Source of the DNA: Blasia pusilla
Lineage: Eukaryota
Assembly: GCA_050084515.1 (NCBI GenBank)
Contig: CM114271.1
Coordinates: 21,142,001-21,206,000, forward strand
Length of the DNA stretch: 64,000 nt
Reading direction: 5' to 3'
Shown: positions 1 to 47,722 of the stretch, piece after piece
Layout: the number at the start of each line of letters is the position of its first letter
Numbering within the stretch: position 1 is the first letter of the stretch
The notes under the pieces: generated by a model
The model's input: the letters and a program-made list of their open reading frames with translations, nothing else
Told to the model about the DNA's origin: nothing
Databases searched by the model: none
Position numbers and translations under genes: made by a program

Positions 1-639
1 GTGGAGTGTTGTCCTTTCAGGATACATACATCCTTGGGTGGAGCGAGTACCACACACTATATCACCCCACATGAGGTTGTGGTGAGGATTGGCTCGGGAC
101 ATCCTACATATGAGTCTGTGGTGTGAGCCAAGGCGATAGTGACCGGTGCAGAGTCCTACGACGTCTTGGTTGGTGGAACAATATTGTACCCGATTGGGTT
201 TTCCTTGGATTACTGGGAGGAGTCAACATCCTACAGACCAGAATGACAGTCGAGTGATCGGCGCCTTAGCTCATTACCCATTCGATTCATCGATGGAATG
301 ATCGAGCAACGGCCAAGAGAGATGGCGACCTTAGCGGCATTTAGCAATGGCCATCACTTGGCCTAGTGATTTCATTGAGGGACATGTCCATGCATAGGAC
401 ACTCCCGTTCGTGAAATTTTTGTGGGGAGGAGTGTCATGGTAGCTGCATCATTCCGTGGAGGAGAGGTGCCGCTTTGGGGCTCGACTGAGGAGCTTCGAC
501 GCTTAGTCGTTAAGCATGTGCAGACTACATGGAGCAAGACGTTTGCACAAGAGCATGATGGGTCAGAGGACCCCGAGGTAGCCAAAAGTGCTACTATGAC
601 CCCTTTGGACACCACTCCAATTATGTGGTGCATCCCAGA

Positions 640-1560
640 GGAGGGTATTCACGTGTTGGATCTCTTTGGAAGGATCAGTTTAGTTGTTGTTTTGCAGGCA
701 ACAGTACCTGTACGTTAAGATTGATGATGTTATGAGGTGCACTTCACGTCACCATATAGCGCAGTTATGCCTCCAATTTCCCGACTTCTTCTTTTTGTCC
801 GCCATGGAGGGGTACCAAAGTTCCCTACTGAGGGACATTTTATTGTTGGGACGCACGACTTGGAGCGGGTAGGGATCATAGACTTGGTCATTGCTGGTTG
901 GCCGTGTGAGGGTCAGTCGAGTGTTGGACAGGGTAGCGGACTCTCCGTCCATGTTATTTTGGGAGATGATGCGGATCTTGCAACACTTATAAGAGCATCG
1001 GTCTTGTTCTCTAGGATGCATTCTACAGAATGTGCCAATTTTGGGCAATTCAAGGTCCCAGGTGGTGACGAGTGCACATTAGGTACGTGCATGGATCAGC
1101 CCGGCACTGTTATTGGATGCGGCGCGTGTAGGTTCACGAGCACATCATCCACGTCTTTCGTGGACCAACTTTATGCCACATGAGGTTTTTTGGAGGGCTT
1201 ATGCGAGAGTGGAGCACCCCTCCCATTTGTTGGTGGATTCTATTCTTGATCCAAGTCGCCGATCATAGGCAGTACGACACGATGATCGACCTCCGTTGAC
1301 TATGGTCAACATGATTGGCATGCCACGAGCAGCTTTTCCCACATTGATGAGTTTTCCCGCTTCCTATGCATTCAAGGAGGTAGGGCCTGGCTTGGTTTGG
1401 GATGACTAGGTACAGCGGTTGGTGGAGCCCAATGCCAATGAGCGAGAGTGAGCGATGGGATTCCTCACACGAGTGATGGCAGTACCGTCACTATAAGAGG
1501 TATCATGACATCATGTCTTGGGTCAGGCGATGGACCTAAAGTGCTTGACATGGATTTTCA
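640..1560 (+). pseudogene. DNMT3-like C5 cytosine DNA methyltransferase domain inside the Gypsy polyprotein (disrupted)
   Basis: Motifs occur in the correct order across frameshifts: I 'IHVLDLFGRIS' (647-679), II 'YLYVKID', III 'LLRDI', IV 'DLVIAGWPCEGQS' (881-919), VI 'WEMMRIL..GCILQNVP' (~960-1037), VIII 'LLDAARVGSRAHHPRLSWTN' (1110-1169), IX 'EPNANERE*AMGF' (1425-1463), X 'LGQAMDL' (1518-1538). Confidence 0.9.
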
Positions 1561-4500
1561 GCTTAGGAGTAGTTGAGCAACGTTGTTTGCGGATGCGACA
1601 GATCACAGTTGTTGCATTGGTGAGCCCCATGCCTACCAAGATGGTTGAGGAAGTGGCTAGGGACGAGACTCGAGGAGATCGACACATCAAGGGTGATCGG
1701 GAGAGACATCCTTGGACTTCTTGGGATGTTTTGCAGGTATGCCACAAGATAATAACCACAGCATCGAGCGTGGTTCCGGGTACTACACGTGGAGATCCAA
1801 GTTTGCAATTGGTTGTAGGGGAGCAATTGAGTCATGTTGTCCGAGATGGGGTTGCACCATAGCAACCACCGACACCCGCGCCGGAGAGTCCTATTCTAGT
1901 AACGATGGAGACTTGGGAGCCAGATATGGGCCCTAAGTTGACAAGAGGAGAGCGGCGCCGGATACACCAGTTTTGTAGGAGTTATTGGAGTTGTTTTGCA
2001 TTTAGCATGCATGATTTGGGTACACTGAAGGTTCCAAGCATACGCATTGAGTTGTCGAGCGACACGCCGATCTTTCGACGACCCTATAGATACAGTGACA
2101 TGGAGAGGGCTTTGATTCATAGTAGGAGCCAAGACTTGGTTGGAGCAGCACTACTGGACATGTTCCATGGAGAGTATGCATCTGCCCCTATCATGCCCGC
2201 CAAGAAGGATGTGTATGGCAACTGGACGGATAGGCGGATGTGTGGAGATTACCGACCTATCAATTGGGAGACAAAGTCTGATAGGTATGCCATGCCCACC
2301 CTTGAGGAGATCTTTGATGCTATTGGGCATGCAACGGTCTTCAATTCCTTAGATCTTTGAGTCGGATACCATCAGCTACCTATCAGATTGGAGAACAGGC
2401 AGAAGACGGCATTTTTGGGCATGGATCCTCACGGGAAGGATTGCTTGTACCAATGGCGGTTCTTACCATTTGGGTTAAGGAACGCCCCCGGTGAGTTTCA
2501 GAGGGTCATGGATAGGATCTTGGCAGGTCGAGATTTTTCTAGGTGTTATATTGATGACATCATAGTCTTTAGCACCACATTTGAAGAGCATAAGTGACAT
2601 CTAGAGGAGGTGTTCCGACGATTGCAATTACATGGACTGAACCTTTATCTATGCAAGTGCAAGTTCTTCTACGACCAGATTGAGTACTTGGGTCATGCGA
2701 TATACCCAGGGGGGCTTGGTGTGCAGCAGACGAAGGTAGAGGCTATTTCACGCATTCCATGCCCAACAGATGTGAGTCAAGTTTGTGCATTCATGGGATT
2801 GGCGAACTTCTATCGACGGTACGTCAAGGGTTTCATTTCAATTGCAAAACTGTTGACCTTGCTAACCAAGGTGGATCAGGATTGGCACTAGGGGGATAAG
2901 CAAGAGAGCATTTTAGCTGCTTAGGGACCGATTGACGTCCACGCCCATATTGAGGAGACCGATCAGGGGGAGTCCTTTCCAGTTGCATACCGATTGGAGC
3001 ATGTTGGGGCTTGGAGACGTACTCACCCAGCATGACGATGAGGGTAAAGAGTTCGTGGTGGCTTACACTAGTCGCTTTAACAACGGTGTAGAGGCGAAGT
3101 ATAGCTCATATGAGGGTGAGTGCTTGGCTGCAGTGTGGGTTGTCATACATTTCAGATGTTATCTATTCGGCAATCCCTTTATCATCATTATTGATCACCA
3201 GCCACTTAAGTGGTTGATGGAGTCCGACAAGCTTACAGGGAAGCTGCAAGGTGAGCTCTTCTGTTGTAGGAGTATGACTTCTAGGTGGTGCATATGCTCA
3301 ACCAAGATGCAGATGGTTTGAGCCGTAATCCATGCCCAAGTTGGCGAGATGCAACTGGAGCTCGTTGGCATGATGAGAGTGATGAGGAGTTGGTGCCATG
3401 ATGGCATGCGTCAGCCTACTTGGGCTTGTTGGCTATGGAGAGCCAGATTGCTGAGACTTCGATGGCAAGGTCTGATGGAGAGTCCTTAGATCCAAAGGCG
3501 GGTGAGGAGACAACATGTGGCCAAGACATTCATGACAATGGAGTGGTCTTGGAGTACCTGCGTATTGGCAGCGTTGCAAGCACAGTGGGTGCTAGAGAGC
3601 AGGATCGGATCCTACAGCGAGCCATACGATTCCGATAGAAGGAGGCACATGTGTTACAAGTTTGGGACGATGGTAGAGTGTGTGTAGTGCCTCATCCTTT
3701 TCATAGAGCACGTTTGGTACGTCATGCCAACGAGGAGTATGGTCATTTTCGAGTGAAGCGGACGTAGAGCTTGCTCCAGATACAGTATAGGTGGCAAGGC
3801 ATGCAGACTAACGTTTAGCAGTTTGTCGCTAGGTGCATGGTTTGTGATCAGGTCCGGGCATCGTTCAATGCTCCGACTCCACAGTTGCATCCACTTTGAT
3901 CATGGATTTAGATTATAGATGGAGTTTGGATTTTGAAGGACCTTTATCTTTGACGGAGCGTCATAGTCATTATGTGTTGGTGATGGTCGAGTACTTCTCG
4001 AAGTGGATAGAGTTGGTTGCATTTCCTGACAAAGCGAGTGAGGGAGTAGCGTATGCTTTCCTAGATAGAGTGTTGAGTCATTACGGCGCACCAGCTGAGG
4101 TGTTGAAAAATGAGGGTACAAAGTTTCACGGGGAGTTTCAAGCCTTGTGTGATCAGGCGTTGATCGATCACCGTACCACTTCGCGAGATCATCCAAAGGC
4201 GGATGGACTAGCAAAGCGGGTTGGGCAGACGGTGAAGAGAGGACTACGCAAGTATGGCTTGCAGAGAGGTCACCTAGGAGATTGGAACCTCCAATTGTCG
4301 TGGTTGGCGATGGGTTACAAATTCCGCAGGAAAGCATCCTTAGCGTCTTTCTCACCGTACCTGCAGCTGTTCGTCAAGATGTTGGTGAGGTGTTGAACCG
4401 TGATGACCGTAATGTATGGATGCGAGCAGGTTCTCAGAGGGCTGAGTTATTTTAGAGAGTGATGCCCATGGCGTTTGAGAACTTGGTGATTGCGCAGCAT

Positions 4501-4784
4501 CGAGGTACGTTGAGGTATGCGACTATTCGGGAAGGTGTTTATCGACCTACTATCCGAAGGTTTCATCATAGAGACTATGTCTACTTGCAGCAGACGCCAC
4601 CCACGACGTTGGATGTGACTCCAAGGCGCACCATCTTGAGAGTGCTTGAGGTTTTGCCATGTGGTGTTCTCTTATTGGAGGCACACAATGCTATGGTGTG
4701 GAAGGATCATTTGCCTAACTATGCGCCATGTCATCTTCCTAACATTGACGATTTTGTTGATCCAAGATCAGCAGTAGTTCCTGC

Positions 4785-4935
4785 ATGCTTGCAATGTATG
4801 TTGTTTGATTGTGCCCGTGGTACAACCATTATGCTAGTCTGTGATGGGTGTTCGAGAGGGTGGCCTATGGCATGTCTGACGCCACCTCTCACCAAGGTTC
4901 CTCAGGGACGATGGATGTGTCCTAGATGTACATAG
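4785..4935 (+). other. PHD finger (C4HC3-like, partly decayed) at the C-terminus of the copy 1 integrase
   Basis: 'CLQCMLFDCARGTTIMLVCDGCSRGWPMACLTPPLTKVPQGRWMCPRC'. The intact pattern is seen in copy 2. Confidence 0.85.
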
Positions 4936-5113
4936 AGTAGGTAGTTCTACATTTTGACTTGTGTCTGTGACATGAATGACAAGAAGGCAACTAACGATGG
5001 GGCCACATTAGCACCCGTCCCTTTTGCTCTCAGCGTTTTAGAGATGTATGTCATGGTAGGTAGGGATGGATGGCTATCTGGATTAGAGGGACCTAACCAC
5101 CAACTACGGGGCG

Positions 5114-5860
5114 ATTGGAGATATTTTGGTACTTCGCGTCTCCTTGTTTGGATGCCTTGAGTTAGCATGGGATTGTGCGCGTTTGTGTGTATATTCATTG
5201 ATAGCGATTTATGTTGTGTAGCGATGTGTAGGCGCACGATAACTTTCATGAATTTTAAGATATATATATTGGCGAGATCTAGTAGAGAGCCTTTGGAGAT
5301 ACTCAAGGACAGTCTCAGGAGGTCGAGGATGACATGTTGAGGCCACGGATAACCTGAGAGAGCACGTTTTCCCTTTGTCTCGGCTCATTTGGAGCCATAT
5401 ACAGAAACTTACTATTTCGGTTAAGTTTCCCTTTGGAGTATAGTTGAATTTCCACTTTGGTAAGTTTCCCTTGACCCGCTACAGCATATCAAGAGCCAAG
5501 GAGATGAGCATAGGTTACCGAGGAGAGAGCTAGGGAGAGGGAAGGGAATATACCTCCAAGAGAGAGAGCTTAAGAGCTCATTCTCTCTTTGTTAAACCTC
5601 TTGGCACGTGGCGGCGGAGCTATGGTCATTCTTGCCTTGTGTGTGTAACCCAAGCCTCTCATTAGGAGAGTCGGTTTGGTTTGACATGAGAGAGTGCACA
5701 CCATGGAGAGATTGGTATGAGACATTGATGTGAGATTGGATAGATTTAACCCCATGCACACGAATCAAACGTTAACGTTACAAAGATGGGATCGTGCGTG
5801 TTTGTGTGTATATTAGTTGACAATGTATGTTGTGTATCGATGTATTTTCATACAAAAACA
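5114..5860 (+). repeat. 3' terminal repeats of copy 1: B1 (~5114-5241), 2-bp spacer, A2 (from 5244), partial B2 (~5786-5860)
   Basis: B1 and B2 both match 8713-8839 ('atgggat.gtgcg.gtttgtgtgt...atgttgtgta.cgatgt'). A2 matches 8195-8700. The junction reads cgcacgata|ac|tttcatg. Confidence 0.8.
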
Positions 5861-5950
5861 TGCATATTGTTAGACAACAAAATTGGAGTAACCATTGCTC
5901 ACAATGCCAACTCCACTCTCCAATCTACATGTCATCATCAAGCCACATCC

Positions 5951-6981
5951 TGTCGCAACCCTCATAACCAAACAACACCAAATAGGCGCCAAGCGAAACA
6001 TCATAACTCAAGGGAACTCACGCTGCGAGGTTTGCACTTTGGAGAGACGTTTGGAAAAGTCTCTTGGAAAAGTCTAAGAGACGAAACGCGGAACAAAGTT
6101 GTGCATTTCATGCGTTAGTGGTCGCGACCAGGAAACCTAGACCCAACGCGAGCCAAGATTTGAGATGAGTTGAGTCTTGGGAGGTTGGTTGCCAAAGAGG
6201 TGAGAACCAATTTGGAACACGACTAGCGTTTGGGAGAATCTGACTATGTTTAGGACCATAACGTTGAGCTCCAAGATGCGTCCGAGGCACGTAAGGGCGC
6301 GTCGGAAATCTGATCTTAAGATGCTTCCGATGCACTAAAGATCTCAGCAAACGCATAAGTACAGGTTGAGATATTAGGGTTTAGGATATTAGAGAGCAAT
6401 CGGGTTGAGGGCCAATTGGAGAGGCCCAAGTGTCTTTCCCTAAATGTAGGGGGCCCCCGGAGATCCCCAGAAGTACTAGTAAGGGAGGAGTCTCTCCGAG
6501 ATGTCTCGGAAAACGAATCCCCACTTTGGGCGCCAAACGGCGTTTCAGAGGCACGGGATGGAACGTGAGTTTGGCGTGGGAACTCGAAACCCAAACCTGA
6601 TCCAAGGGAGTGGACTTTGTACGGCACACTTGGATTCCAACCCGAGATTCACTTCGTGCGAGTCTTGATGAGGAACTCATTGGATGTCCATCGGATAGTT
6701 GGAACCGCTAGGCGCGAAACGCCGTTTCAGGTTCCTGAATCGACCAGAAATTCTGTCCCAAGTCTTTCGAGATTTTCCCGTGTTGTAAACCGCAAAACTA
6801 GGAAGGTTGAGCTTGATGAGAGTCCAAGACGAGAACTCGGAAAGTAATTCCGCTGATTGATCCAAGACCCGACTAACCAAAGTGCGTGTTTGGATGCAGA
6901 TCAGCCTTGAGAGCGTGACCTACTAAATGCACGCTTCCGCAACAAAAAAGATTAACGTTCAAGGAGAGTAGGCGCACGACA
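5951..6981 (+). mobile_element. Solo LTR (~1.0 kb family), 5-bp TSD CATCC
   Basis: Ends TGTCGC...CACGACA with CATCC on both sides. Homologous to 16700-17696 and 38509-39535. Confidence 0.9.
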
Positions 6982-8194
6982 CATCCCCCCTTCACCAGGA
7001 GGGAATTCAAACTCTACAACTCTAGCTCCTATCAAACCCTAGAAGAAAAAGTGCTACCTTGGCTCTACATGAGATGATAAGAAAGATAGTTCTTGAAATC
7101 CATATATCTCCTCACCTCTTATATCCTTGGGAGGAGTTCAAAGAGCTCTCCACACAAATATATCCAAAATTGGTTACCTCCACACATAGATTATCAGATG
7201 ATTGTTGACTTGATTAACATGTCAACTGATCCAAAATAGAAAAGAAAGGGGTTTGGAAAAAATGTTTATCCCAACACATTAGAACTATAACCAATGAACC
7301 TCATCCAATCTCATGGTTTTGCAAAAACTTTAGACTTCAATGCTCTTGGGTACTTGAGCCAATTTCAATCAATTTTTCTATTTTTATGATCCGACAACTT
7401 GTACATAGGTTACCGCCTTACCGGATGACCATTGACTCTATCAACGAGTCATCTTATTGACTAAGAAAAAACTATGAATTTTGTCAAAAATGATATTCCC
7501 GACGCAATAGACTTGTCGCCAACCTCATCCGACATCTCAAGACAAAGTTACACCCAAACAGCCTACTAACCCTCTATGTCATCAATGCGGTAGAACTCTA
7601 CCTGTTTGCTAGCTAAGATCTGGCATACTTAAATAGACCAATAGTGGACAACTCATAGACTTTCCTACTACTCTGTTTCTCTTTTGTCTTTAGTGTTGTT
7701 TAAGTAATTTGCTTCACTTGTTTTCATCAATGAACTGTTGCAATTGCACATGCCTGTTTGAACAATTTTTCCTTGGTTGAATTTTGTGCTTATTATAGTT
7801 GATTGATAGTGTCTCATTGCCCTTTCATGCGATTCTATCACGTAATATTTTGGTTACTTAACTAACTCATTGTGCACTTTCAATGTGCACATTCATCCGT
7901 GTAGAACTGAAAATGTTCATACTCACAATTGCATGTGTTATTTTCTTTTTTAGTTTTCGAGATACACCAAGCACCTTACTTGTGTGATCTCAATCTAGAT
8001 CGTTGTTATTTCAATAAGCTTGTGTTAATGTATACTTGGTGAGCACATGAACCGAGCAAAAGTGGTTAATATCATACATTACCTTTTTCCATTCCTATAA
8101 TGTGTTGTGATCCTCTCTTCTTATCCCTACCATTTTCTGTTAAGTGGATCTCTCCTTGAACTCTGCGCACTTCACTTACTATCATTGTTATGGT

Positions 8195-8839
8195 TGTCAC
8201 GTCTTTTAGAATAGATCGGTGAGATCTAGTAGAGCGCCTTCATGAGTAGTAGAAGACAGGCTCAGTAGGTTAAGGATGACCTGTTGAGGCCCCGGGAAAC
8301 CTGAGTGAGCAGGTTTCCCCTTCGTTTCAGCTCATTTGGAGCCATATTGAGGAACTTATTATTTTAGGTAAGTACCATTTTGAGTATATGATCGACTTTA
8401 TATTTTTGGTAAGTGGCCCTTGGCCTCCTACATCAGATCAAGAGCCAAGGAGGTGACTTGGGAGCATAGGTTACCATGGAGAGAGCTTGGGAGAGGGGAG
8501 GGGTATACCTCAAGGAGAGAGAGCTTGAGAGCTCATTCTCTCTTTGTTGAACCTCTTGGCATGAGGCGGCAGAGTTATGCTCTTGTTTGCCTTGTGTCTG
8601 TAACCAAAGCCTCTCATTAGGAGAATGGGTTTGGTTTGACATTGAGAGAGACATGTGAGAGTGCACACATTTGAGAACTATGGTGTTGTGAGAGAGATTG
8701 GATCTTATTTTATTGGAGATTTTTTGGTACTTCTTGTCTCGTTGTTTGGATGCCATGAGTAAGCATGGGATAGTGCGTGTTTGTGTGTGTGTTCGGTGAC
8801 AACGATGTATGTTGTGTAGCGATGTGTATGCGCACGACA
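8195..8839 (+). mobile_element. Solo A-B terminal repeat of the copy 1 Gypsy family
   Basis: TGTCAC...CACGACA; colinear with 5244-5860; flanks TGGT/TGGC (possible 4-bp TSD, one mismatch). Confidence 0.85.
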
Positions 8840-16699: not shown

Positions 16700-17696
16700 T
16701 GTCGCGCCCCTACTCTCCTTGAACGTCAATCTTTAGTGTTGCGGAAGCGAGCGTCGTTGATGGGTCATTTAACTCATCGCGATCGCACCCAAACACGCAC
16801 TCGTTAGTCGGGTTTGGCCAACCGGCGTTCAACCCACCGAGTCCTAAACTCGGCGTCTCATCAAGCTCAACCTTCCTTAGTTCCTAGCTCCCAACACATG
16901 GCAAGTCCTTCAAGACTTGGAACAGACTTCTGGTTAGTCCAGGGATCAAACGGCACTTGCACGCCTAGCGATCCCAACTGTTCAACGGTCCTCGTGTGAG
17001 TTCCGAACCGAGACCCAAGTAATTGAGTCGCGGCGTGAAATCCAAGAGGGATGTCTAAAATCGCCTCAATGGACTTGGTGCAGGTTTTCCAACCCAACGC
17101 CCAAACTCGCGTTCCGTTCCATGCTCTTGAGCCGCCCCGCGGCGCCCAAAGTGGGGTTTGGGTTCCAAGCACTCTCGGAGACCTTCCCCCTTACTAGTAC
17201 TTCTGGGGTTCTCCAATAACCCCTCCCCTTTGGGAAAAGAGGTTCGGGCCCTTCATTGTGGCCCTCAACCCGACTCCACTTACATTCGTTTTCGGGTTGT
17301 ATCTCGGCCACTGCTTATGCGTTTGCAACGATCTTTAGTGCGTTTTGACCGGCTCTCCATAAGCTTTCCAACGCACCCTTATTTGCTCCAGACGCATCTC
17401 GGCGCTAAAAGTTATGGCTAGAAATACAGTCAGAAACTCTCAAACGCAAGTGGCGTTCCAAATCCGGATCTTTCCTTTGGCAACCCACTTCCTAGACTCG
17501 ACTTCTTTCAAGTCTCATTCCACGTTTGGTCCAGGTTTCTGAGTTGCGACCATCACATCTGAAACGCGACTTCTCGCTCACGTCTCGTCTCTTGTCTCCT
17601 CTTTGAGACAACTCCAACGCGCAAACCATCTTAGCGTGAGCCCGCTAATGTTCCAATGTTCCGCTTGGCACTTGTTTGGTCATGAGGGTCGCGACT
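16700..17696 (-). mobile_element. Solo LTR (~1.0 kb family), reverse orientation, TSD GTGCC
   Basis: GTGCC|TGTCGCGCCCC...GGGTCGCGACT|GTGCC; close reverse-complement match to 38509-39535. Confidence 0.92.
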
Positions 17697-18680: not shown

Positions 18681-19699
18681 AAGAAAAATTTCCACAATAA
18701 ATTAAAAGCATATATTATTTTTATTCATCCCATAATCTTCATCTATCAAAAGTAATTTTTTTAATATTTTTATTATTACTTGTATTAGGATTAAAACTTG
18801 TAGAATGTTTTCGTAATGTGTCATTTTCAAATGTGAAAACTAAAAAATTATTTATTTGATTTTCAATTAATGAGTTTATGAAGATGTCATTGAGACTTTT
18901 GTAATTAGTCACGTCCAAATTTTTTTAAGATTTTCATCATTTCATCATTTTATCATTACATAATTAATTTATGATAGTTTTTGAAATATTTTTCTAATAT
19001 ACTTCTCCTTTCAATTATAGTAAATTTATTTTTTTTAATTATACCATTGGGAAAAATTGAACTCTTTTTTTGTATGGTACTTATCATTGAAAGTAAAAAA
19101 AAATCCATGAAGACTACATATCCTTTCTTTTGAATGTCAAAATGAATTTAAGTTAAGTTTAGTGCTAAGAATTTCTTACAAAATTTTCCCCTATGTTTTA
19201 AAATATAATTATTCTTCTACATTTCCTCCAAAACAATATTTTGGATGAGAAAAATATGAAATTTTGAAAATGAAATGGGAAGAAGGAAAGAGAATTTTTT
19301 TCAAAAGGACATATAGAGAATTTTGAATGGGGAAAAGGAAGTGAAGAATAAGATAAACTTTTCAAAGGAGCATGCGAGGGTAGGAAGAGAGAAAGGTAAA
19401 AATTTCATAAATTAGGATTTCATAAGGAAAAAATTCTTTAAATATTTAACTTTCAATAAGAGGGAATATTGTGCTTATACATATCTATACATGGACATGT
19501 ATATATATTTAATTTTGATTCACTCCAAAATTCCCCAACTTCTTGTAATCATATTGAACAAATGGTGCTCTCTACAAAGGATGAGGCATCACTTGTACTT
19601 TACCATCCTCCCAAACTAGCAAAACATGTTTCTCCTCCCACTTGAACTAGCTCGCTCTCTATAGGATCTAATCTTACTCTTTGGTATCCACCATGCCCG

Positions 19700-20390
19700 T
19701 TATGATGTCAATGCATAAGTACTTCAAAACTACCGGATCCTTGTGGATATCTCGGTCACCTATCGCCTCTTGACCGTCCTTTTGATGGGGAGACTCTCCA
19801 TCTAACCTAGTCTTCAAAGTTCATGTTGTATAGCTCTTCACGGTCAATAAAGACCAAATAGGAAAATGTGTACCATGCATGCATCATATCCTCATCACTC
19901 TCATAATGTCAATAAGCTCCAATTGCATCTCATTAACTCGTACATAGGCTTCCACTCAAACCATCTATATCTTGATTCAATCTCCTAGGTTGATGTACCA
20001 CTTAGAAATCATACTCCTTCAACAACAAAGCCCATTTGAAAAGTTTCCTTCTAACCTTGTTACATTCCATCAACCATTTTAGTGGTTTGTGATCAATGAT
20101 GAGAATAAAGGGTTATGGAACAAATAACACATGAAATGCGTGACGGCCCATAATGCAGCCAAGCACTCTCCATTGAATGAACTACACTTTGCCTCTCCAA
20201 CATTGTTCAAGATGCTAGTATAAGCCACTATGAATTCCCTACCCTCATTGTCATGATGGATGACAACCGCTCCCAATCCCAACGTGATCAAATTAGTGTG
20301 CAATTGGAAAGGATGCACCCTACGTGGTCTCCTCAACATAGGTACGGATGTCGATGTTGAGCAATTGAAAATGGTCTCTCCTATGTGTTG
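19700..20390 (-). mobile_element. Gypsy RNase H relic of the same lineage as copies 1 and 2
   Basis: ORF 20079-20339 'LRRPRRVHPFQLHTN..TLGLGAV..HDNEGREFIVAY..GECLAALWAVTHF' aligns with 2932-3321. Confidence 0.85.
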
Positions 20391-35499: not shown

Positions 35500-37500
35500 A
35501 ACCATTGCAATGATCTACTGTTGATGATCTGTCTATCTACCTTTGCATTCATTGTACACTTCTTGGTCAAGGTTTGAATTGAGGTTTCTTATAATTCAAA
35601 GATGACCATTTGAATATTGGAGGTAGATACTCATAGCTTATTCTAGGGGCTTAATAACTATGCCTAGTTTTTGGACTTGTTTATCTATACAATTTCCATT
35701 TTAAGGTCTTCGTACAAGTATTCCTAGGCACGATTCATGCCGAGCATCAAAACCTTTCATTCCCATACAAAATCTCTAAAAGCCTATACCACCTTCATTT
35801 CAAAATCCCATTTATAACTGTTATAGAGAGATAGTCATATGGAATCTCAGGAATTGTTGATCTCTCACAAGTTGATGGGGCATCCCCTTCTACCAACCTC
35901 AAGAGCTTTTGGCCCACTCATGTCACGGATTTGTATCCGAAAGTCACGAAACTCTTCGATGTAGTCCTCCACAATACCTTTCTGCTCTAGTCGCCATAGT
36001 TTCATTATAGTAGTGAAGATTGGATCCACATCTTGAAAATTTTGCAGTAGCCCTTGCTTCATTTCGCTCCATGTGATTTGTTGAGTTGTTTCAATCAAGA
36101 ATCTCTCCCATCTTTGATACAATGTCAATGCTCGATGAGTTAACGAAGATCTTATGAACATCCTTGCAATATGATCATCAATGTTGAAAAAGGATTAATG
36201 GATTTTCATACGAGTGATCCAACCCTTTAATATCCCCATGGCTCGACTTCCTTTGTACGGTTCTACCTTGCATACCTTTGTCATTTTCAATATCAATGAT
36301 GCTTGGGCATTCATCTCCATCACTCTTTGTGCTGCTTAGACCTCCAATGCTCATGCCCTTAAGGTTTCCTCACTCTCCCCAGAAGTCACGACACTCATGG
36401 TTTCCATCTCCATCCCACATATCGGAAAAACTCTCTCTATCTCTACTCTCATATTTCTAACCGAAGCAACTTCTTGGACTTAATTTTGACTTTGATCAAA
36501 TGCAACTCTCAACTCTCTCAATTCACGAATCATATCCCTCAAAGATTCTTCCATGATCACTTCGAATTTCTCTTGATCCTTCACTACCACTATAATATAA
36601 GATCAAGATATACACCTGCCAATTTTGCACAATAGGGCCTAGAAAAGGAAGTGTTGACATAATGACTTCATCATAATACTCTTGGCCAAACTTCCTCACC
36701 ATAAACTCTCTATATGCTGTCTTAGCTTGACAAACCACATGGATTATACATTGAGTGTTAAAATACACTTATGGGGGCCAATTCAGATCCATTCCCCATA
36801 TCTCATCTAAATTAATATATAAATAAAGCAACCCCACACACCATCATATGTAACAATAGGAAGGATCATCGGGAAGCGAGACTCCATCACTTGCGTCATC
36901 AAAACTTCACCAAAGTGATATATGAGATATCTCGTGAACCAGTATCTATCTACATATAAGAGTTTGATGGTGAACGGATTAAGAAACGGAAAATTAGGAG
37001 CCAATCTTGCTCCTCCTTCATCCATTACTTGCAAAACAGCCCTTCCCCCTTACTCTACTTGCAGCTCAATAGCCACTGCCAACCTCTAACAACCTATCTA
37101 ACTCTCGATAGTATATCATTACTTGGTCATCCTTCCAAGAGGGGTAATCCACTCTCGTTGGAAGAGCAACCTTGTACTGATACCATTGTAACTCTCCACC
37201 TCATAGAACCACTCTAGAGTTTCTCAAAAGTAGAATGTCCCTCGAGACCTCTCCTCTTCTTTTATATACCTAGAGATAAGAACAATGAAGATAAATTAGC
37301 TCTACCTATCTTTATGCTACGTGTCCTACTCTCATAGTATGAGAGAATCTCCTTTGGACTCTAATGTCCCAATCTCATCTTCCCCAACCTCATCCTTATC
37401 TTCCTTTTCACCAACCTATGGCCCCACTCCCATCTTTATCTCATGTATCTTGTCTTTTCTCTTTTTGGTTGATTCTTTCCTACTTATGTGCTTCATGTCA
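35500..37500 (-). mobile_element. Truncated conventional Gypsy relic: LTR end, tRNA-iMet PBS and gag
   Basis: Minus strand reads ...GTTACA|A|TGGTATCAG (PBS at 37177-37185). The gag-like ORF 35865-36161 reads 'ITWSEMKQGLLQNF..KLWRLEQKGIVEDYIEEF'. Outer boundaries are approximate. Confidence 0.7.
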
Positions 37501-37633
37501 TATATTCTAACTTAACTATGACCAACAAAGGATGGATACAAGTTGGAGTTGAGGTGTTTGTCTTGAGAAATATCAAGGAGGAGACACTATCATAAAGAGA
37601 TCATGAAGATGAAGTCATGTCCCATGCTTCCAT

Positions 37634-40600
37634 TGTCGTACGAATCCACATCGTCATAAAACATACATCGCTGACATACCATACTCATATACATACATAA
37701 CATAGACGAGAGCATCCACAAACACAAGTGTACCACAACTCGAAATCTGTGAAAGATCTACTGTCATGAAACACGTATAGAATCACATACAATCGAGCCA
37801 AACCCACTCCACCATGGGAGAATCTAGGTCGAAGCTTGCGGGAATCACCATAGCCAAGAGCTCTACTCACTACCAAGGCTAACTCCCAACGCAACAAGCT
37901 CAACTCAAAGAACTAACTATTCTTTGAGTGCACTCCACACTATATCCTCCAACCTAAGAGCAGACCCTACTGGAAAAGTCACCCTCAACTGAATAACCCC
38001 CAACCCTATGTATGAAACCGCACCTCTGCTTGGACACTACGGCCCTACATAAGGTATGGCCTCTACTAGCACACTATATTTTATGACATAATCCGTCATG
38101 ACAACTGTCGTGCGAATCCACATCGTGATACAACATACATCCCTCATATATCATACTCACATACATACATAACATAGACGAGAGCATCCACAAACACAAG
38201 TGTACCACAACTCGTCCCCCAAACTCTCTAACTCCCAAGTAGCCCTAGACATCTACTACATGCTATACACCTTCCTAGGTGTAGGATTCAGAAGGCCGGG
38301 TGCTAGGTTAACCCATCGTTAGTCGCACATGTGTAATCCATATCATGCAAAGATCAAGTCATCTACCTCTCCTAAGTACATCGAGGACAAACCCACCTTC
38401 CAGTAGGAACAACATCCATACGTGGAGTCAAACACATCATGTGCCAACCCCTAGAACACCGATCACACACCAACATAGGGGTTGCGTTACCAGCAGACCC
38501 ACACAACATGTCGCGACCCTCATGACCAAACAAGTGCCAAGAGGAACATCGGAACATTAGCGGGCTCACGCTAAGATGGTTTGCGCGTTGGAGTTGTCTC
38601 AAAGAGGAGACAAGATACGAGACGCGAACGAGGAGTCGCGTTTCAAGTGTTATGGTCGCGACTGAGAAACCAGGACCAAACGCGGAATGAGACTTGAAAG
38701 AAGTCGAGTCTAGGAAGTGGGTTGCCAAAAGGAAGATCCGGATCCGGATTAGGATCCGGATCCGAATTAGGAACGCCACTAGCGTTTGAGAGTTTCCGAC
38801 TGTATTTATGGCCATAACTTTTAACGCTGAGATGCATTTGGAGCAAATAAGGGTGCGTTGGAAAGCTTATGGAGAGCCGGTCCAAGCGCACCAAAAATCG
38901 CTTCAAACGCATAAGCAGCGGCCGAGATACGACCCGAAAACGACTGTAAGTGGAGTCGGGTTGAGGGCCACAATGAAGGGCCCGACCCTCTTTTCCCAAA
39001 GGGGAGGGGTTATTGGAGAACCCCAGAAGTACTAGTAAGGGGGAAGGTCTCCGAGAGTGCTTGGAACCCAAACCCCACTTTGGGCGCCGCGGGGCGGCTC
39101 AAGGGCATGGAACGGAACGCGAGTTTGGTCGTTGGGTTGGAAAACCTGCACCAAGTCCATTGAGGCAATTTTAGACATCCCTCTTGGATTTCACGCCGCG
39201 ACTCAATTACTTGGTTCTCGGTTCGGAACTCACACGAGGACCGTTGAACAGTTGGGATCGCTAGGCGTGCAAGTGCCGTTTCAGATCCCTGGACTAACCA
39301 GGAAGTCTGTTCCAAGTCTTGAAGGACTTGCCATGTTTTGGAAGCTAGGAACTAAGGAAGGTTGAGCTTGATGAGACGCCGAGTCAAGGACTCGGTGGGT
39401 TGGAACGCCGGTTGGCCCAGACCCGACTAACGAGAGTGCGTGTTTGGATGCAGATCGGCGATGAGTTCGTGACCTACTGAACGCACGCTTCCGTAACACT
39501 AAAGATTGACGTTCAACGAGAGTAGGGGCGCGACACAACATGCACCTCAAGCTAGCACGTATCATGGCTAAGCTTGGGTCAACAGTACCATCCACATTTG
39601 GTAGATGACATGGCGCACAATTACGCACATGGTCCCTCCAAATAACTCCATCACGAACCTCTAACATGAGAACTCCATAAGCTAACACCTCGCGCACTCG
39701 TAAAATACTGCGGCTTGCCACCACATCTAACGTTTTCAGTGCAATCTGCTGCAAATAGACATAGTTCCCCACATGGAACCTACAAATCAATGGTCGATAA
39801 CCTCCACCCCGAATGGTTGCATACCGCAACGTATCCCAGTGTTGAGCAATGGCAAGATTCTCAAAGGCTGTTGGCATAATTCTCCGAAAGAGCTCTGCCC
39901 GTTGAGAACACATTCTCATCCACATCTCTGGGTCATCAAGGTTCACCATCTCACTAGACTTCGGACGAATTTCTGGTGGCAAGTCTGGATCTCGGCCGTA
40001 TAACAGAAAATAAGGTGAGAAGGAAGCCAAGGATGCTTGGCGACTGAACCTATACCCCATGGCTAACCATGGCAACCGAATATCCCAGTTTCCAAGATGC
40101 CCCTTCTGTAGGCCATACTTGCGCAATGACCTCTTCACCGTCTGAACCACACGCTCAGCCAAACCATCCGCCTCTAGATGATCTCGAGACGTGGTCCAAT
40201 GATCAATCAATACCTTGTCACACAAGACCTGAAACTCACCCTGAAACTCTGTACCCTGGTCGGCCAGCACTTCAGCTAGTGCACCAAAATGACTAAGCAA
40301 AATGATTTGCCTTGTCAAGTAATGCCAACAACTCAATCCACTTGGAGAAGTGCTCCACCATCACCAACACATATCGATGATGTCGTACACTCAACGGTAA
40401 CGGACCCGCAAAGTTCACACTCCAATGGTAACCCAACCCCATAATAGGCAAAGGGTGTAACTGTGGTGTAGGGGCATTGAATGATGCCCTCACCCGGTCA
40501 CAAACCATACAACGTGAAACCAATTGCTGCACCTGAGTATGCATGCCACGCCACCAATACTGACCAAGGAGTAAGCTATACGTACGCTTTACCCCAAAAT

Positions 40601-43139
40601 GTCTCAACTCCTCATGGGCATGTCGCACAATGCGCTCTCTCTGAGCCAAATGCGGCACCACTCGTACTCTACCATCCTCTCATACACGGAGAATATGTGT
40701 TCTCTCCAATCGATACCTCTTAGCACGTTGAAGAACACGGTCTCGCTCCTTAGCACTCACTATGCCTCGCACCCTACTGGTCCGTAGGAACTCTAACACC
40801 AACGCATCATCATGAATATCATGTTGATCCATACCACCATCTCCAACCTTAGGATCTGAAGGCTAGCCATCTACCCTCTGACTAGAGTAAGATGTCATGT
40901 GGTCCTCCATACTAGAGTCCACCCCTAACCAACATAAAAAGGCAGATGCATGCCAACCTGGCACCATCTCCTCATCAACCTCGCCATGCCATCTAGCCCT
41001 AGTTGCATCCTCTTGGCTAGTATATGGGTTCCTACTCAACCCATCAGCATCAAGGTTGGCAACTCCATGTCTTCCATCAACCACTTGAGCGGCTGGTGAT
41101 CAGTAACAAGGGTAAACTGTGTGCCAAACAAGTAACACCTAAAGTCTACCACAACCCACACTACTGCCAAGCACTCTCCCTCATATGAACTATAGCGCAA
41201 CTCCGCTGCATTATTTGAACAACTTGCATAGGCCACCAAAAACTCCATGTGCTCATCATCATGTTGTGTCAACACCACTCCAAGTCCCAACCTACTCCAA
41301 TCAGTGTGTAACTGAAATGGGCGCCCTCTGATAGGTCTCCTCAAGATAGGCGCCGTCACCAACTGGGCCTTGAGCTCCAAAAAAGCTCTCTCCTGATCAT
41401 CTCCCCAGTGCCACTCCTAATCTGATTTCAGAAATTGGTTCAAAGGCTTTGCCATAACACTAAATCCCTTCACATACCTCCGATAGTAGTTCGCCAATCC
41501 CATGAATGCCCGAACTCTACTCAAATCTACCGGACGAGGAATAAGTGCAATAGCCTCCACCTTTGCTTGTTGAACTCCCAAACCACCTGGATAGATCACA
41601 TGACCCAAGTACTCGACATCCTCATGGAAGAACTTACACTTTCTTGGATGCAAACGTAGACCATGAGCTTTCAACCGCTCAAATACAAACTGAAAATGTA
41701 TCTGATGATCCTCCACCGTGTTACTGAACACCAAGATATCATCAATGTAACACCCAACAAAATCCAACCCTGCTAGGATCCTGTCCATCACTCTATGAAA
41801 CTCGGTAGGTGCATTCTTCAGCCCAAAGGGTAAGAATTTCCACTGGTACAAACAATCCTTGCCATGAGAGTTGACACCCCAAAATATTGTCTTGGCCTTG
41901 TCACTCTCTTGAATTCGCAACTGATGGTATCCTGCTCGAAGATCCAAAGTACTGAAAATCTTTGCCTGTCCCACCACATCAAAGATCTCCTCAGGTGTAA
42001 GCATGGCATACCTATCGGCCTTGGTCTGCTGATTGATAGGACGGTAATCTCCACGTATCCGCCTATCCGTGTAGTTGCCATGCACATCCTTTTTAGCACG
42101 CATGATAGTGGCTGATGCATACTCTTCATGCGAGAACTCCACTAATCCAGCCTCCAAAAGGTCCAACGTCCTACTCTGAATCAGGTCCCTCTCCATATCA
42201 CTATATCGGTAGGGATGACAGAAGATTGGCGAATCAGTAGCCAAATCAATCCGTATACCGGGTCCAACCAAAGCACCCAACTCCTTCATGCTAAAGGCAA
42301 AACAACTCCTATAAGCACGTAGGAATTGTGTCAAGCGTCGTTTCTCACCTCCCCTAAGCTTGGGCCCAAATAACGGCTCCCAAGTCTCCTCCATCGGCAC
42401 ACTAGAGGGAGAGGACGACGCCATTGGCTGCTATGCAACCCCCTCACAAGATGGTACACCCTTAGCTACACCATCATCTGAGCAAATAACTCCTCCAGCA
42501 GCATGAGCAACCAACTCCACATGCCCAGCCATTACGAACCAGAGTCTTCAATCCTTGATAACTTCCAACTCCCTTAACAAAATCCAGCAATCTAAAGCGC
42601 ATTGGAAAGCTCTAAGCAAGGCGCTTCTTTGCTAGCCAACCACACACCAGATTCATACCTCCAACATAGGCCACAAGCTACGAACATCCATGGTTGAGTA
42701 CACAATCAGCCCTAACCAGATCCTAGTGATCCACGATCGAAGCTACCATCGATCTACTCCAGTTCTTTGAGTGAAATCCGTGAAAGACCTACTGTCATAA
42801 AACACGTATAGAATCACATACAATCAAGCCAAACCCACTCCACCATGGGAGAATCCAAGTCGAAGCTTGCGGGAACCACTATAGCCAAGAGCTCTACTCA
42901 CTACCAAGGCTAACTCCCAATGCAACAAGCTCAACTCAAAGAACTAATTGTTCTTTGAGTGCACTCCACATTATATCCTCCAACCTAAGAGCGGGCTCTA
43001 CTGGAAAAGTCACCCTCAACTGAATAATCCCCAACCCTATGTATGAAACCGCATCTCTACCTAGACACTACGGCCCTACATAAGGTATGGCCTCTACTAG
43101 CACACTATACTCTACGACATAATCCGTATGGTCATGACA
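37634..43139 (-). mobile_element. Ty3/Gypsy copy 2 (RT-RNaseH-IN-PHD; gag, PR and DNMT absent) with split direct repeats A1...B1-A2-B2
   Basis: RT ORF 41417-42424 ('YIDDILVFS'), RNase H 41036-41380, integrase HHCC and core 39540-40661, PHD 38372-38508 plus 39536-39550. A1 42773-43139 matches A2 37742-38103; B1 38106-38214 matches B2 37634-37742. Termini TG...CA; flanks CCAT/GCAT. Confidence 0.93.
38509..39535 (+). mobile_element. Solo LTR (~1.0 kb family) inserted in the PHD finger of Gypsy copy 2, TSD CAACA
   Basis: CAACA|TGTCGCG...CGCGACA|CAACA. Removing it restores 'LRCMLCGSAGNATPMLVCDRCSRGWHMMCLTP..GRWVCPRC'. Confidence 0.95.
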
Positions 43140-44164
43140 GCATACTTCCACCAAGAATTGAGGACAAGCCTTCTATACTTAATGAAGTTGAAAATCCATT
43201 GGGGAGCATACTTCTATGTCAGAAAACGGCTAATATTGGGAGGATTGTAAAATTCAACAAGTTCCTCAATCTCGCACGGACTCCAAACTTCCAAGAAAGT
43301 GATGTAAGAAAACTTGGAATGCCATCAATTGTAAGTCAAACAACAGGCCGTCTTGATCTTGGGAAGATTACTAAAATTTGTCCTTCGTGTCATGCTCTCC
43401 ATTGGACATGTGAGAAGATGAAGGCTATAAGATTTTGCAACTCTTCTTTTGGCATGTGTTGTGAACATGGAAAAATACAACTTCCCTTCTTGAAAAAGAA
43501 TCCTCCTTTCTTACAATCATTGATTTCATGTATTGGTGCTAAATGTGCCCACTTTCTTATCTATGGTCAAGCTTATAATTCAGCATTACAATTAGCCTCT
43601 ACCGAAGCTCATGTGACGGACCAAATTGGTGGTATCAGACACTTTAGGGTACAAGGTGGCATCTACGATACTATTGGGAGCACTACATCTAGAGGAAGAT
43701 GATCATCCTAGATTTGCTCAGATCTAGATTCATAATACCAAGAATGAGTTGGAGTATGAAGGAAGAGTTATATCGTATGATCTCCAACTTAACAACTTAC
43801 AAGGGCTACGAGAGATGTTACATGAGCATAATCCCTATGTTAAGGTATTTCATCACATCACAAATGAGGAAAGTAATCGCACTGTGCTCATCATCCTAAA
43901 GGCAAGTAAGTGTGGTCTTGAGGAAAACCTTTACAACTTACCATTGGATTTTGAAATTGCAGCAATTTTGCCAAGTGATGGAAGTGATTGTGTTGATTTA
44001 CAGGCGACAATTACATGAAGGGGGCACAAGACGTATATCAGACCAAAATGAAGCGTATATTCCGCTACACTTTGCTTTGTTATCTGTTTATGGTGAAGCG
44101 GGTTGGCATCCAAGAATACCATTTGGGAGTTTTCCACAGACTACAACAAGTAGCGCTATAAGGG

Positions 44165-44219
<55 letters not shown>

Positions 44220-45699: not shown

Positions 45700-45839
<140 letters not shown>

Positions 45840-47722
45840 TATTTATTTATTTATTTGTTGTAATCTTTGGGATATCTTGGATCTCTTCTGATATTTTTTC
45901 TCTGTTACATATGCTAGATCGGACGATGGAAAGAAGATAATGAAGCGCGACAAGTGCTTAGAGAATCAATGGGTCATACTTTATAGTCATTTATTATGTA
46001 TCCTCTTTGATTGTCATATGAATTTGGAGATCACAAACAATATTTTTGCGATTTAATACTTATTTAAGTACATAAGTAAGGAATCTTATGCTATATCATT
46101 TCAGGTCTAAAAAGATATGGATACCTCCATGACAATGCAAATTATTGATGAGATAGACTTATATCTCGATGCAAGGTGAGCTTCGATTCACAGAATTAGA
46201 TTTCCTTCTCGATTCTAATTGATTGTTTTTCGAATGATATGACATACATCGAATTCTATAAAGTAAGTTCTCTTGGAATTGTATGTATGTATGTATGTAT
46301 GTCTCTTGTTCAGAGGCATTCTGACGACTTTTCAGTTTAATTTATAAGTGGAACAACCAAGTGTTATGAGATTGGTTGTTCATCTATCAGAGGCACAAAC
46401 TATTTACTTCAATGATCATTATATGCCTAAGGATATTTTACAAAGAAATAGGGAGACCAGCTTAACTCAATGGTTTGTTGCTAATGAACTTGATCAAACG
46501 GCTCGAGAGTATTTATATCTTGACTTTCCTTTATATTATTGCTAGAGTACAAAAAATGGATTCGTACAGTACAAAGAAGAAATGGTTGTGGTCATGCAAT
46601 TGGATGCTTATACCTTACTCATCAAGGTAAACACTTTATGTTATATTATGCTTCTATAGCCATTATTTTTAATTTGGGTTGAGTTTCTTATCTTATTTTT
46701 GAAATAAGATATGCAAGAAAATGAATGATTTTTATTCGATATTAAATGATCTTATCAATTACATATATCTCAACAGGTGATGGACAACGTCACTGGTTGG
46801 GGTTACTTCTTCATCATGTTCGAGATGCGACTTCCTATAAACAATTAAGAATTGTACATGGAGTCATATATCCAACTTTTAATGAAGTTGGTATTCAATT
46901 GGGACTTCTTTAGGATGAAGATGAAGTCTTCTCTTGCTTACAAGAAGCTTCTAAGATTCATACAGGTTCCTCACTTTGCCGATTATTTGCCGTTATTCTA
47001 GCTTATTATACACCTGATAGACCTACAACAGTATGAAGTCAATTTTTGGCTCCATTCATGGAGAGGATATTGTATGAACAACGTGAGGTAAGCAAAAGAA
47101 ATAAAACTTTGCTCATCTTTCTTTTTCTTTTCCTTCTTCCTGTTCATTATCATATCTTTTGATGGTTGGCTATTGGAGGTTGGAGAGGGTTGTGTGCCGT
47201 TACACACTTCTTTGGGAGAAGATTTTTTTCGGCTGCCATCTAACATGGTTGTTCATAGCAAGAATGTAAATGATCTTCTTGGTATTATATATGGGAATGA
47301 TCTTCAAAGGTTTCATGATATCAAATTTTTGAAGATACACCTATTCTCACATCAAGAAATAGAAATGTTGATGACATAAATACGGAAGTCATGTCTCAAT
47401 TTTCTGGGGAGATAATAACTTTTACTCTTAATATTCTTATTCTTAAGGAAAATAACTTCATTTCATTTAATTTTTAAATTTAGATAATTTATGGAAAAAA
47501 AAATTCTAACAAGTCTGTGTCATGTACATGAGCATGTTTATCTTAGTGTTGGTTCACTTCCAAACAAGGGAATGAGTTGTATCTATCCAACATAGTTCTT
47601 AAATACATGTTTATCTTCTGGACTACCTCCGCATCGCTTTAAACATTGGTGCACCAATTATGCTTTTATGGAACATGAATGGGGCCAAAGGACAAGAAAT
47701 CGGTGTATCATGCAACATATTA

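Follow-up and report, generated by a model that had tools for sequence, protein, structure and literature searches.

The 64,000-nt stretch of the Blasia pusilla genome analyzed here (contig CM114271.1, positions 21,142,001 to 21,206,000; hereafter the window, numbered from its first letter) contains a retroelement, E1, at 37634-43139 on the minus strand, the strand on which we describe it. E1 is a decayed copy from a high-copy Ty3/Gypsy family within the DNA methylase (DNMT)- and PHD-bearing clade of liverworts, mosses and streptophyte algae, and its repeats are split and permuted. The integrated form in this clade is A-PBS-(PR, DNMT, RT, RNase H, IN, PHD)-PPT-B-nn-A-B, where A and B are the repeated segments, nn is a two-nucleotide spacer, PBS and PPT are the primer-binding site and the polypurine tract, and PR, RT and IN are protease, reverse transcriptase and integrase. 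The explanation that we favor for these observations as a whole, and that the sequences make somewhat probable, is that such elements produce a self-primed cDNA with B-nn-A repeats, which would be permuted by joining of its ends and then opened by the integrase.

Self-comparison of the window gave the order A1 ... B1-gt-A2-B2 for E1. The 5' repeat, A1 (42773..43139), starts with TGTCATG and contains a TATAAT box (42975-42970) and a hairpin at 42960-42934 (ACTCAAAGAAC-aatta-GTTCTTTGAGT). At the other end of the element, B1 (38106..38214), which terminates in CGCACGACA, is separated from A2 (37742..38103) by the spacer gt (38104..38105), and A2 is directly followed by B2 (37634..37742), which terminates in CGTACGACA; one base at the A2/B2 boundary is common to both repeats. 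A1 and A2 are 93.5% identical across 355 nt (BLAST E 1e-155) and B1 and B2 are 92.7% identical across 109 nt (BLAST E 1e-42). A polypurine tract, gggagttagagagtttggggga (38215..38236), which ends in GGGGGA, lies one base before B1. The B1/A2 junction reads CGCACGACA-gt-TGTCATG, such that the two ends of the element meet head to tail as ACA-gt-TGT. A first-pass annotation, made from the sequence of the window alone, had placed the four repeats and the purine tract at these positions and had noted the head-to-tail junction, and self-BLAST and the sequence itself bear out both.

The 5' end of E1 consists of A alone. A search for a hidden copy of B after A1 gave Smith-Waterman scores of 18-19 against a shuffle mean of 18, and hence no similarity to B. 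The upstream flank of A1 was also compared with E2, a further element of this clade in the window, and had no detectable homology to the sequence that precedes its RT, indicating that A1 is a true 5' end. E1 is flanked by ATGC on its 5' side (43140..43143) and ATGG on its 3' side (37630..37633), a 4-bp target duplication that matches at three of four positions. A 10-bp duplication (TGGAAGyATG, matching at 9/10 positions with a 1-nt offset) was also considered and was rejected, as the matching bases are better explained by an 8-nt tandem (TGGAAGTA TGGAAGCA) already present in the host DNA around a 4-bp duplication, the length also seen in relatives. No second copy of the E1 flanks, from which an empty site could be read, is present within the window.

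The layout is a feature of the family and of the clade and not a local accident. For the family, we placed raw reads from the same organism (run X19, ~1/100 of the run, likeness at least 85) on window positions 37300-43500. Read depth was ~1200 across the interior of E1, from which we conclude that the family has many copies, and ~1000 in the leader that follows A1. Joints of the B-nn-A type were abundant among these reads (278 with the spacer GC, 90 with AC, 43 with GT and 42 more), as were A|B joints (110, plus minor variants), and the A1|leader junction was spanned by two contigs ~10% diverged from E1; all three junctions exceed what a single locus would supply. In the flanks, the 3' side (37300-37633) is repetitive, with a read depth of ~258, and the far 5' side (43303-43500) is nearly unique, with a depth of ~5; E1 probably sits at the edge of, or within, another repeat. 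The 5' flank also contains (AT)n microsatellites at 44168-44217 and ~45700-45870.

For the clade, the closest proteins among the matches listed were from the liverworts Calypogeia (77%) and Marchantia (71-79%), with Marchantia polymorpha among the species that hold relatives, followed by Sphagnum, Klebsormidium, Chara and Closterium. A typical clade protein is ~1040 amino acids long and contains RT, RNase H, integrase and PHD; 6/120 among the matches listed also contain a C5 DNA methylase domain. An alignment of 18 clade proteins was used to retrieve 76 loci from metagenome contigs, while no relative was found in viral contigs. Six pairs of these loci proved to be the same locus caught twice (99.1-99.9% identity), and all counts are therefore given for distinct loci. 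A and B were mapped without a low-complexity filter, which hides the TG-rich B of liverwort-type loci (L004 and L030 were recovered in this way). The 3' end was B-nn-A-B at 23 distinct loci and a single B followed by unrelated DNA at 16; two others were B-A cut by the contig end, one was B-A followed by other sequence and one was a deleted form. The remaining loci were left unscored: their sequence either stops close to the end of pol or comes from families unmatched by the A and B probes. At the 5' end, A stood alone in 19/19 distinct elements (18 loci and E1): B followed A1 in none of them, and neither did any of the 19 have the mirror form, A-B-nn-A...B. The first-pass annotation had proposed counting A...BAB against AB...AB copies and measuring their target duplications; none of the 19 distinct 5' ends was of the AB...AB type, and the duplications were of 4 bp. 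Two identical terminal long terminal repeats (LTRs) with PBS and PPT at their inner edges were not found, the 5' end being A only and the 3' end B-nn-A-B or B. In one distant family that the A and B probes did not match, a pair of direct repeats 380 nt apart lies just after pol (L036:14149-14626), and the B-A-B layout may reach beyond the two families studied.

The single-B copies could have arisen by deletion between B1 and B2, or they could be a direct product, either of a circle with one repeat or of cuts at both junctions. Their terminal branches in a pol tree (median 0.069, n=15) were as long as those of B-A-B copies (median 0.071, n=18; Mann-Whitney p=0.68, with L044 and the liverwort-type loci left out), and because there is no difference in age, branch lengths cannot decide between deletion and direct integration for the A...B form.

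The ends that the integrase would use, and the junction at which they meet, recur in the related copies. Every complete copy begins with TGTCATG (or a decayed form of it) and ends with ACGACA or ACAACA. The spacer between B1 and A2 is purine-pyrimidine at 25/25 distinct loci (GC at 10, AC at 9, AT at 4 and GT at 2), as well as in E1 and E2, and the majority spacer in the family reads, GC, gives the palindrome ACAGCTGT (core CAGCTG). The other spacers, like the frequent GATA and TATCATG forms, correspond to C-to-T changes of this palindrome; the junction of the liverwort-type locus L004 reads CATGACAGCTGTCATG. We read the ancestral junction as a perfect palindrome, ACAGCTGT, in which ACA and TGT would be separated by GC. 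Fourteen elements (nine B-A-B and five single-B) are complete enough to compare the 4 bp on either side: seven match at 4/4 positions, five, including E1, at 3/4, L038 at 2/4 and L012 at 1/4. Thus, 12/14 elements (8/9 B-A-B and 4/5 single-B) match at three or more positions, where chance would give such a match in ~5% of elements.

These ends and duplications go together with a DDE integrase. RVT_1, RT_RNaseH, Integrase_H2C2 and rve are present in 18/18 aligned clade proteins, PHD in 14/18 and DNMT in 2/18, and in the integrase triad D695 and D755 are invariant and E790 is conserved in at least 90% of sequences. No tyrosine recombinase (PF00589, Phage_integrase) was found in the open reading frames (ORFs) of E1 or E2, in the 18 clade proteins or in upstream ORFs from three of the loci (L004, L041 and L060), nor does the domain occur in the domain lists of 120 among the matches listed, in agreement with the absence of tyrosine recombinase motifs noted in the first-pass annotation. 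The same annotation called E1 a DDE-integrase element. This is correct for the clade, but the integrase core of E1 itself is frameshifted and gave no rve match, and the assignment of E1 is made because of the rve match in E2, just under the Pfam cut-off, and the rve domain in all 18 clade proteins.

Where reverse transcription would begin and end can be read from the sequences that adjoin the repeats. In the clade, PBS and PPT adjoin the A-end and the B-start, not the integration termini. A run of at least five G residues directly precedes B1 in 38/41 distinct loci, the exceptions being L038, L040 and the truncated L044. Directly after A1 in E1 lies ACTCAAAGAAC (42762..42772), a proposed self-priming PBS, which is complementary to GTTCTTTGAGT within A1 (42934..42944), 32 nt after the first T of the TATAAT box and proposed to be the first 11 nt of the transcript; the reverse-complement match is 12 nt long, and 0/200 shuffles reach it. 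An exact match of this kind, 10-17 nt long and joining the A-end to an internal site in A, is present in 9/19 distinct elements (0-3/200 shuffles reach it), and the distance from the TATA box to the internal partner is 30-32 nt in 5/5 elements in which a TATA[AT]A box can be scored and the match reaches 10 nt. Four paired versions of the site differ by compensatory changes: ACTCAAAGAAC / GTTCTTTGAGT in E1 and L004, ATTCGAAGAAC / GTTCTTCGAAT in L008, where the full 11 nt pair against the element's own A2 copy, TAGAAAAACTA / TAGTTTTTCTA in the moss type, and ...AAATTG / CAATTT... in L066. When the E1 RNA was folded from its predicted start, nucleotides 1-11 paired with the priming site in both the minimum free energy and the centroid structure. 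The spacing from the TATA box predicts a transcript start ~31 nt downstream of it in A, and the positions of the two priming sites suggest that the A-end is the U5|PBS boundary and the B-start the PPT|U3 boundary. With the PPT at B1 and the priming site at A1, the reverse-transcribed repeat should be B-nn-A, the cDNA repeat that had been deduced in the first-pass annotation and that the adjoining sites now support.

Taken together, these features suggest the following cycle. Transcription would start in A1, ~31 nt after the TATA box, and the first 11 nt of the RNA would fold back on the site after A1 and prime the minus strand, as in Tf1, with the G-rich PPT before B1 priming the plus strand. 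The product would be a linear cDNA with a B-nn-A repeat at each end, [B-nn-A]-PBS-...-PPT-[B-nn-A], in which the integrase ends, TGTCATG... and ...ACGACA, would not lie at the cDNA ends but would meet head to tail, as a palindrome, inside each repeat. Because the integrase ends lie inside the repeat, the integrated copy would be a permutation of the cDNA, in which the right A-end is joined to the left B-start, most simply by circularization. Integrase would then cut at the junction within the upstream repeat and so free the TG...CA ends, whose insertion with a 4-bp target duplication would give A...B-nn-A-B; the A...B copies without A2-B2 would be a frequent second product or a decay form. The A|B joint varies: by eye, 10/19 moss-type copies either differ in length at this point (-3 to +1 nt) or hold an insertion, in many cases where there is A/T microhomology, against only 3/14 that depart at the neighboring A1|PBS boundary. 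Liverwort-type copies have a B2 that begins with GAG, AG or AA, and at the A|B joint of E2 ~52 nt of B are missing and ~38 nt of filler are present. The variation and the E2 filler fit imprecise end joining and are suggestive of it. Three moss-type loci (L020:12548-12568 and the A-ends of L024 and L037) show an AATTC AATTC duplication or a 20-nt A-end-like insertion at this joint. A stronger version of the same idea, that clade-wide the palindrome ACAGCTGT is inherited in mid-repeat, the integrated copy is a circular permutation and a circle-like intermediate is obligatory, is one that we put forward only tentatively, as being rather less probable than not.

Several observations weigh against this cycle. 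In a symmetric circle the two junctions are identical, and the mirror form A-B-nn-A...B should then be about as common as the form observed, but it was found in 0/19 elements. The permutation, the head-to-tail TG...CA ends and the 4-bp duplications all fit the first-pass proposal (a 2-LTR circle cut at an internal CA-nn-TG), but we infer the covalent 2-LTR circle, like every step beyond the sequence anatomy, from the layout. The 16 distinct A...B loci are a further difficulty, because this form is unable to regenerate its own promoter and yet is no older than the B-A-B form; many insertions may be dead on arrival, or deletion may be fast. Ten of the 19 elements, all decayed copies, lack an exact priming match of at least 10 nt and have 8-9 nt or nothing, and the fold energy of the whole E1 leader is no better than that of shuffled sequences (z = -0.19), so the evidence from folding was taken from the specific 11-nt pairing alone. 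In addition, B looks like a terminator, and transcripts would end early in B1 unless it were bypassed. Finally, the surplus of length variants at the A|B joint is no more than suggestive, since slippage in AT-rich DNA could also produce it.

The principal rival to end joining and opening by integrase does without a covalent circle, and we consider it unlikely, but the one that most needs to be weighed. The right end would be extended on a template, either by transcription past A2 into B2 or by a plus-strand jump from the A-end to the left B-start, so that the linear cDNA would have one more B beyond its right repeat. Integrase would cut at internal CA/TG sites; the left junction together with the extension would then give A...B-nn-A-B, the left and right junctions together would give A...B, and the right junction with the extension would give a solo A-B unit. 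This scheme predicts exactly the three forms seen (23 B-A-B, 16 single B and the solo unit at 8195-8839) and no mirror form, it agrees with A...B copies being no older than B-A-B copies, and the UG-rich and AAUAAA-like motifs of B are those expected of a poly(A) region. However, the strand jump must be postulated, and the integrase would have to remove more than 100 nt from the cDNA ends, an activity that, to our knowledge, is not known for any integrase; the length variation at the A|B joint fits either model. Another alternative is that A...B is the primary product, made from a one-repeat circle or from a deeply trimmed linear cDNA, and that B-nn-A-B is secondary, arising for instance by recombination between a circle and a resident A-B. 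The 16 distinct A...B 3' ends, the 3-4/4 duplication matches of four of the five complete ones and their apparent age, equal to that of the B-A-B copies, would all accord with this. An A...B copy transcribed from A, however, would lose whatever part of A precedes the start site and so cannot sustain the family; 8/9 complete B-A-B copies have duplications of their own that match at three or more positions, meaning that they inserted as one unit; and recombination in B would also yield the mirror form, which is absent. We therefore regard this alternative as improbable.

Two further explanations can be largely set aside. In a cycle like that of PAT, Ngaro or DIRS elements, the ends would be restored on the internal B1-A2 pair and a tyrosine recombinase acting in trans would insert the circle. 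The repeat layout is the one by which the split direct repeats of PAT, Ngaro and VIPER elements are defined in the portions of PMC4157794 and PMC7192593 covered here. But no Phage_integrase domain occurs in E1, E2, the upstream ORFs of L004, L041 and L060 or the 18 clade proteins, the DDE triad is conserved, TG...CA ends accompany 4-bp duplications in 12/14 elements, and both the RT-RNase H-IN order and the homology of these domains are those of Ty3/Gypsy. These data largely refute such a cycle, and we hold it to be very improbable. That E1 is instead an ordinary A-B LTR element, with its 5' B deleted and B1 produced by duplication in place, by tandem insertion or by faulty assembly, might be suspected from the large internal deletion and other damage that E1 does carry. 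The breakpoint of that deletion, however, is at 42535/42536, 237 nt inside the leader and not at the A|B boundary; B was found at the 5' end of 0/19 elements; and the PPT adjoins B1, not A2. The same layout, moreover, is present in E2, in the family reads and at 23 distinct loci from other samples, which also disposes of the possibility, raised in the first-pass annotation, that B1-A2 is a duplication unique to this locus. The family data refute this explanation, and we assign it practically no weight.

The coding region of E1 retains RVT_1, RNase H, Integrase_H2C2 and PHD, in that order, as Pfam matches on its ORFs. All are on the minus strand: the reverse transcriptase ORF (RVT_1, E 2.6e-30) at 41417..42430, the RNase H domain at 41036..41416, the integrase at 39281..40679, comprising the H2C2 zinc domain (40293-40679) and the frameshifted core, through which tblastn similarity to clade proteins continues as far as 39575, and the C-terminal part of the PHD finger with the stop codon at 38372..38509 (Pfam PHD, E 5e-10). 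Neither gag nor protease was matched by Pfam in the E1 ORFs, because ~4.7 kb have been deleted at 42535/42536. At this point 864 reads depart from the E1 reference going upstream, with an agreement of 0.98, and the leader and the pre-pol segment are ~4.7 kb apart in L004/L005 (one locus caught twice). E1 has thus lost ~4.7 kb corresponding to the protease/DNMT region, with a breakpoint inside the leader, of which 42536..42772 is kept. In relatives, the stretch missing from E1 contains weak matches to aspartic protease (L041 and L060) and to DNA methylase (L004), all below Pfam cut-offs; a gag family was recognized in none of the copies examined.

Other damage is also specific to this copy. RNase H has a 73-nt deletion relative to the family at 41072/41073, where 243 reads hold 73 extra letters. 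The PHD finger, which is uninterrupted in E2, is split in E1 by an unrelated transposon of ~1 kb (38501..39532, minus strand) flanked by a 10-bp target duplication, CATGTTGTGT; 775 reads jump from 38500 to 39533 (10 nt ambiguous), which identifies the intervening sequence as a separate transposon with a 10-bp duplication. Neither this insertion nor the 4.7-kb deletion, nor E2 at the start of the window, had been picked up in the first-pass annotation. There are further signs of indels in the integrase region of E1: most family reads leave the reference at 40377 (1015 reads, agreement 0.89) and 40628 (726 reads, agreement 0.94) or skip 86 nt at 40563-40650. The 1-kb transposon is non-coding and has imperfect terminal inverted repeats and target duplications of ~10 bp in E1 and 7-9 bp in the E2 region. 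Further copies, at 16700-17695 and 5944-6983, are 91% and 68% identical to that in E1, and the transposon is abundant, with ~750 reads at each end running into diverse flanks.

E2 (1..5853, plus strand) is cut by the start of the window and is ~70% identical to E1 in pol. It contains a DNMT remnant (1-1556), RT/RNase H (1899-3246) and an intact PHD domain (4456-4935), and an rve match at 3848-4396 that scores 32.3 bits against a Pfam cut-off of 32.6 (E 1.3e-07). The DNMT remnant gave no Pfam match on the broken upstream ORFs and was seen only by tblastn with clade proteins, the N-terminal part of Marchantia RT-DNMT proteins matching with E 1e-43 to 1e-67. At the 3' end of E2, GGGG precedes B (5114-5241); the spacer ac follows, then A, which begins at 5244, and what is left of a second B (5786-5853). 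Downstream, at 8195..8839 on the plus strand, the E2 family has left a solo A-B unit (TGTCACG...CGCACGACA), with the flanks TGGT and TGGC as read by eye; it could have come from recombination between A1 and A2 or from direct integration of an A-B fragment. Other Gypsy pol remnants, at 19581-20342 on the minus strand, are 66-78% identical to the RT and RNase H of E1.

A Gypsy element with this repeat layout is already known. KnitGypsy-Dnmt3 of Klebsormidium nitens combines a DIRS-type repeat structure with Gypsy domains, according to the legend of Fig. 4c in de Mendoza 2018 (Nat Commun 9:1341, PMC5890265), and E1, in which Gypsy domains are likewise combined with a DIRS-like layout, belongs to the same kind. 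The claim in the first-pass annotation that the layout is foreign to integrase-bearing Gypsy elements therefore does not hold, an element of the same clade being on record. Placement in one clade is indicated by K. nitens proteins among the matches listed (42-44% identity), by relatives with DNMT fused to pol and by the DNMT remnant of E2. Unlike KnitGypsy-Dnmt3, the E1 family is from a liverwort, the DNMT region of E1 is deleted and many relatives have PHD without DNMT. For KnitGypsy-Dnmt3, the portion of the text of PMC5890265 covered here describes neither the boundaries of the element nor its priming sites, and it contains no junction sequence, no target duplication and no mechanism. A limited literature search found the name KnitGypsy in no other paper, and the same search, which is weak evidence of absence, found no paper on the mechanism of split direct repeats in integrase-bearing Gypsy elements. 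The positions of the priming sites, the palindrome at the junction, the target duplications of 4 bp, the A...B form that lacks repeats and the absence of the mirror form may, as far as this search can tell, not be in print; in combination, they open the mechanism to experimental test.

Parts of the proposed cycle have counterparts in other systems. In Tf1, the LTRs are of the ordinary kind, the integrase ends coincide with their termini, and a chromodomain takes the place of the PHD finger. The likeness of E1 to Tf1/sushi elements lies in the proposed arrangement of priming: the 11 nt after the U5 equivalent can pair, with covariation, with the 11 nt predicted to begin the E1 transcript, and in Tf1 the first 11 nt of the RNA act as its primer (PMC7175516). 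PAT-like, Ngaro and VIPER tyrosine-recombinase elements feature split direct repeats in the same order, A1-B1-A2-B2, in which the B1-A2 pair is internal and comes after the coding region (PMC4157794, PMC7192593, as far as these sources were covered). They code for a tyrosine recombinase and lack a DDE integrase, whereas the E1 clade has a DDE integrase, TG...CA ends, 4-bp duplications and a Ty3/Gypsy RT. In retroviruses, it takes ligation of the cDNA ends to create the LTR-LTR junction, whose role is minor or disputed. Every repeat in the E1 clade, by contrast, already contains the junction by inheritance, with a spacer of 2 nt, and the joint that would have to be made anew is that of the A-end to the B-start. 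What the two share is a palindromic head-to-tail joint of integrase ends that could be opened by integrase to integration-competent ends; in the parts of PMC1180852, PMC1905944 and PMC4372172 covered here, foamy virus and HIV-1 integrases are described as cleaving palindromic LTR-LTR junctions.

Split direct repeats have been held to be a hallmark of tyrosine recombinases. In a Gypsy clade derived from liverworts, mosses and algae they are the norm together with a conserved DDE integrase, so that repeat layout is uncoupled from recombinase type. One practical consequence is that such elements will be mis-annotated by any LTR finder built to look for a terminal pair of identical repeats; in the A...B form, terminal repeats are absent altogether. 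The clade also provides a natural system for asking whether an integrase uses an internal junction of the LTR-LTR type in vivo, a question that is testable because relatives occur in Marchantia polymorpha, a tractable model. If the stronger version of the proposed cycle, which we hold to be rather less probable than not, is correct, an end-joined, circle-like intermediate would be an obligatory step of the life cycle and not a dead end, these elements would be a natural case of the long-disputed model in which the circle junction is a substrate for integration, and there would be a second, recombinase-free route to split direct repeats.

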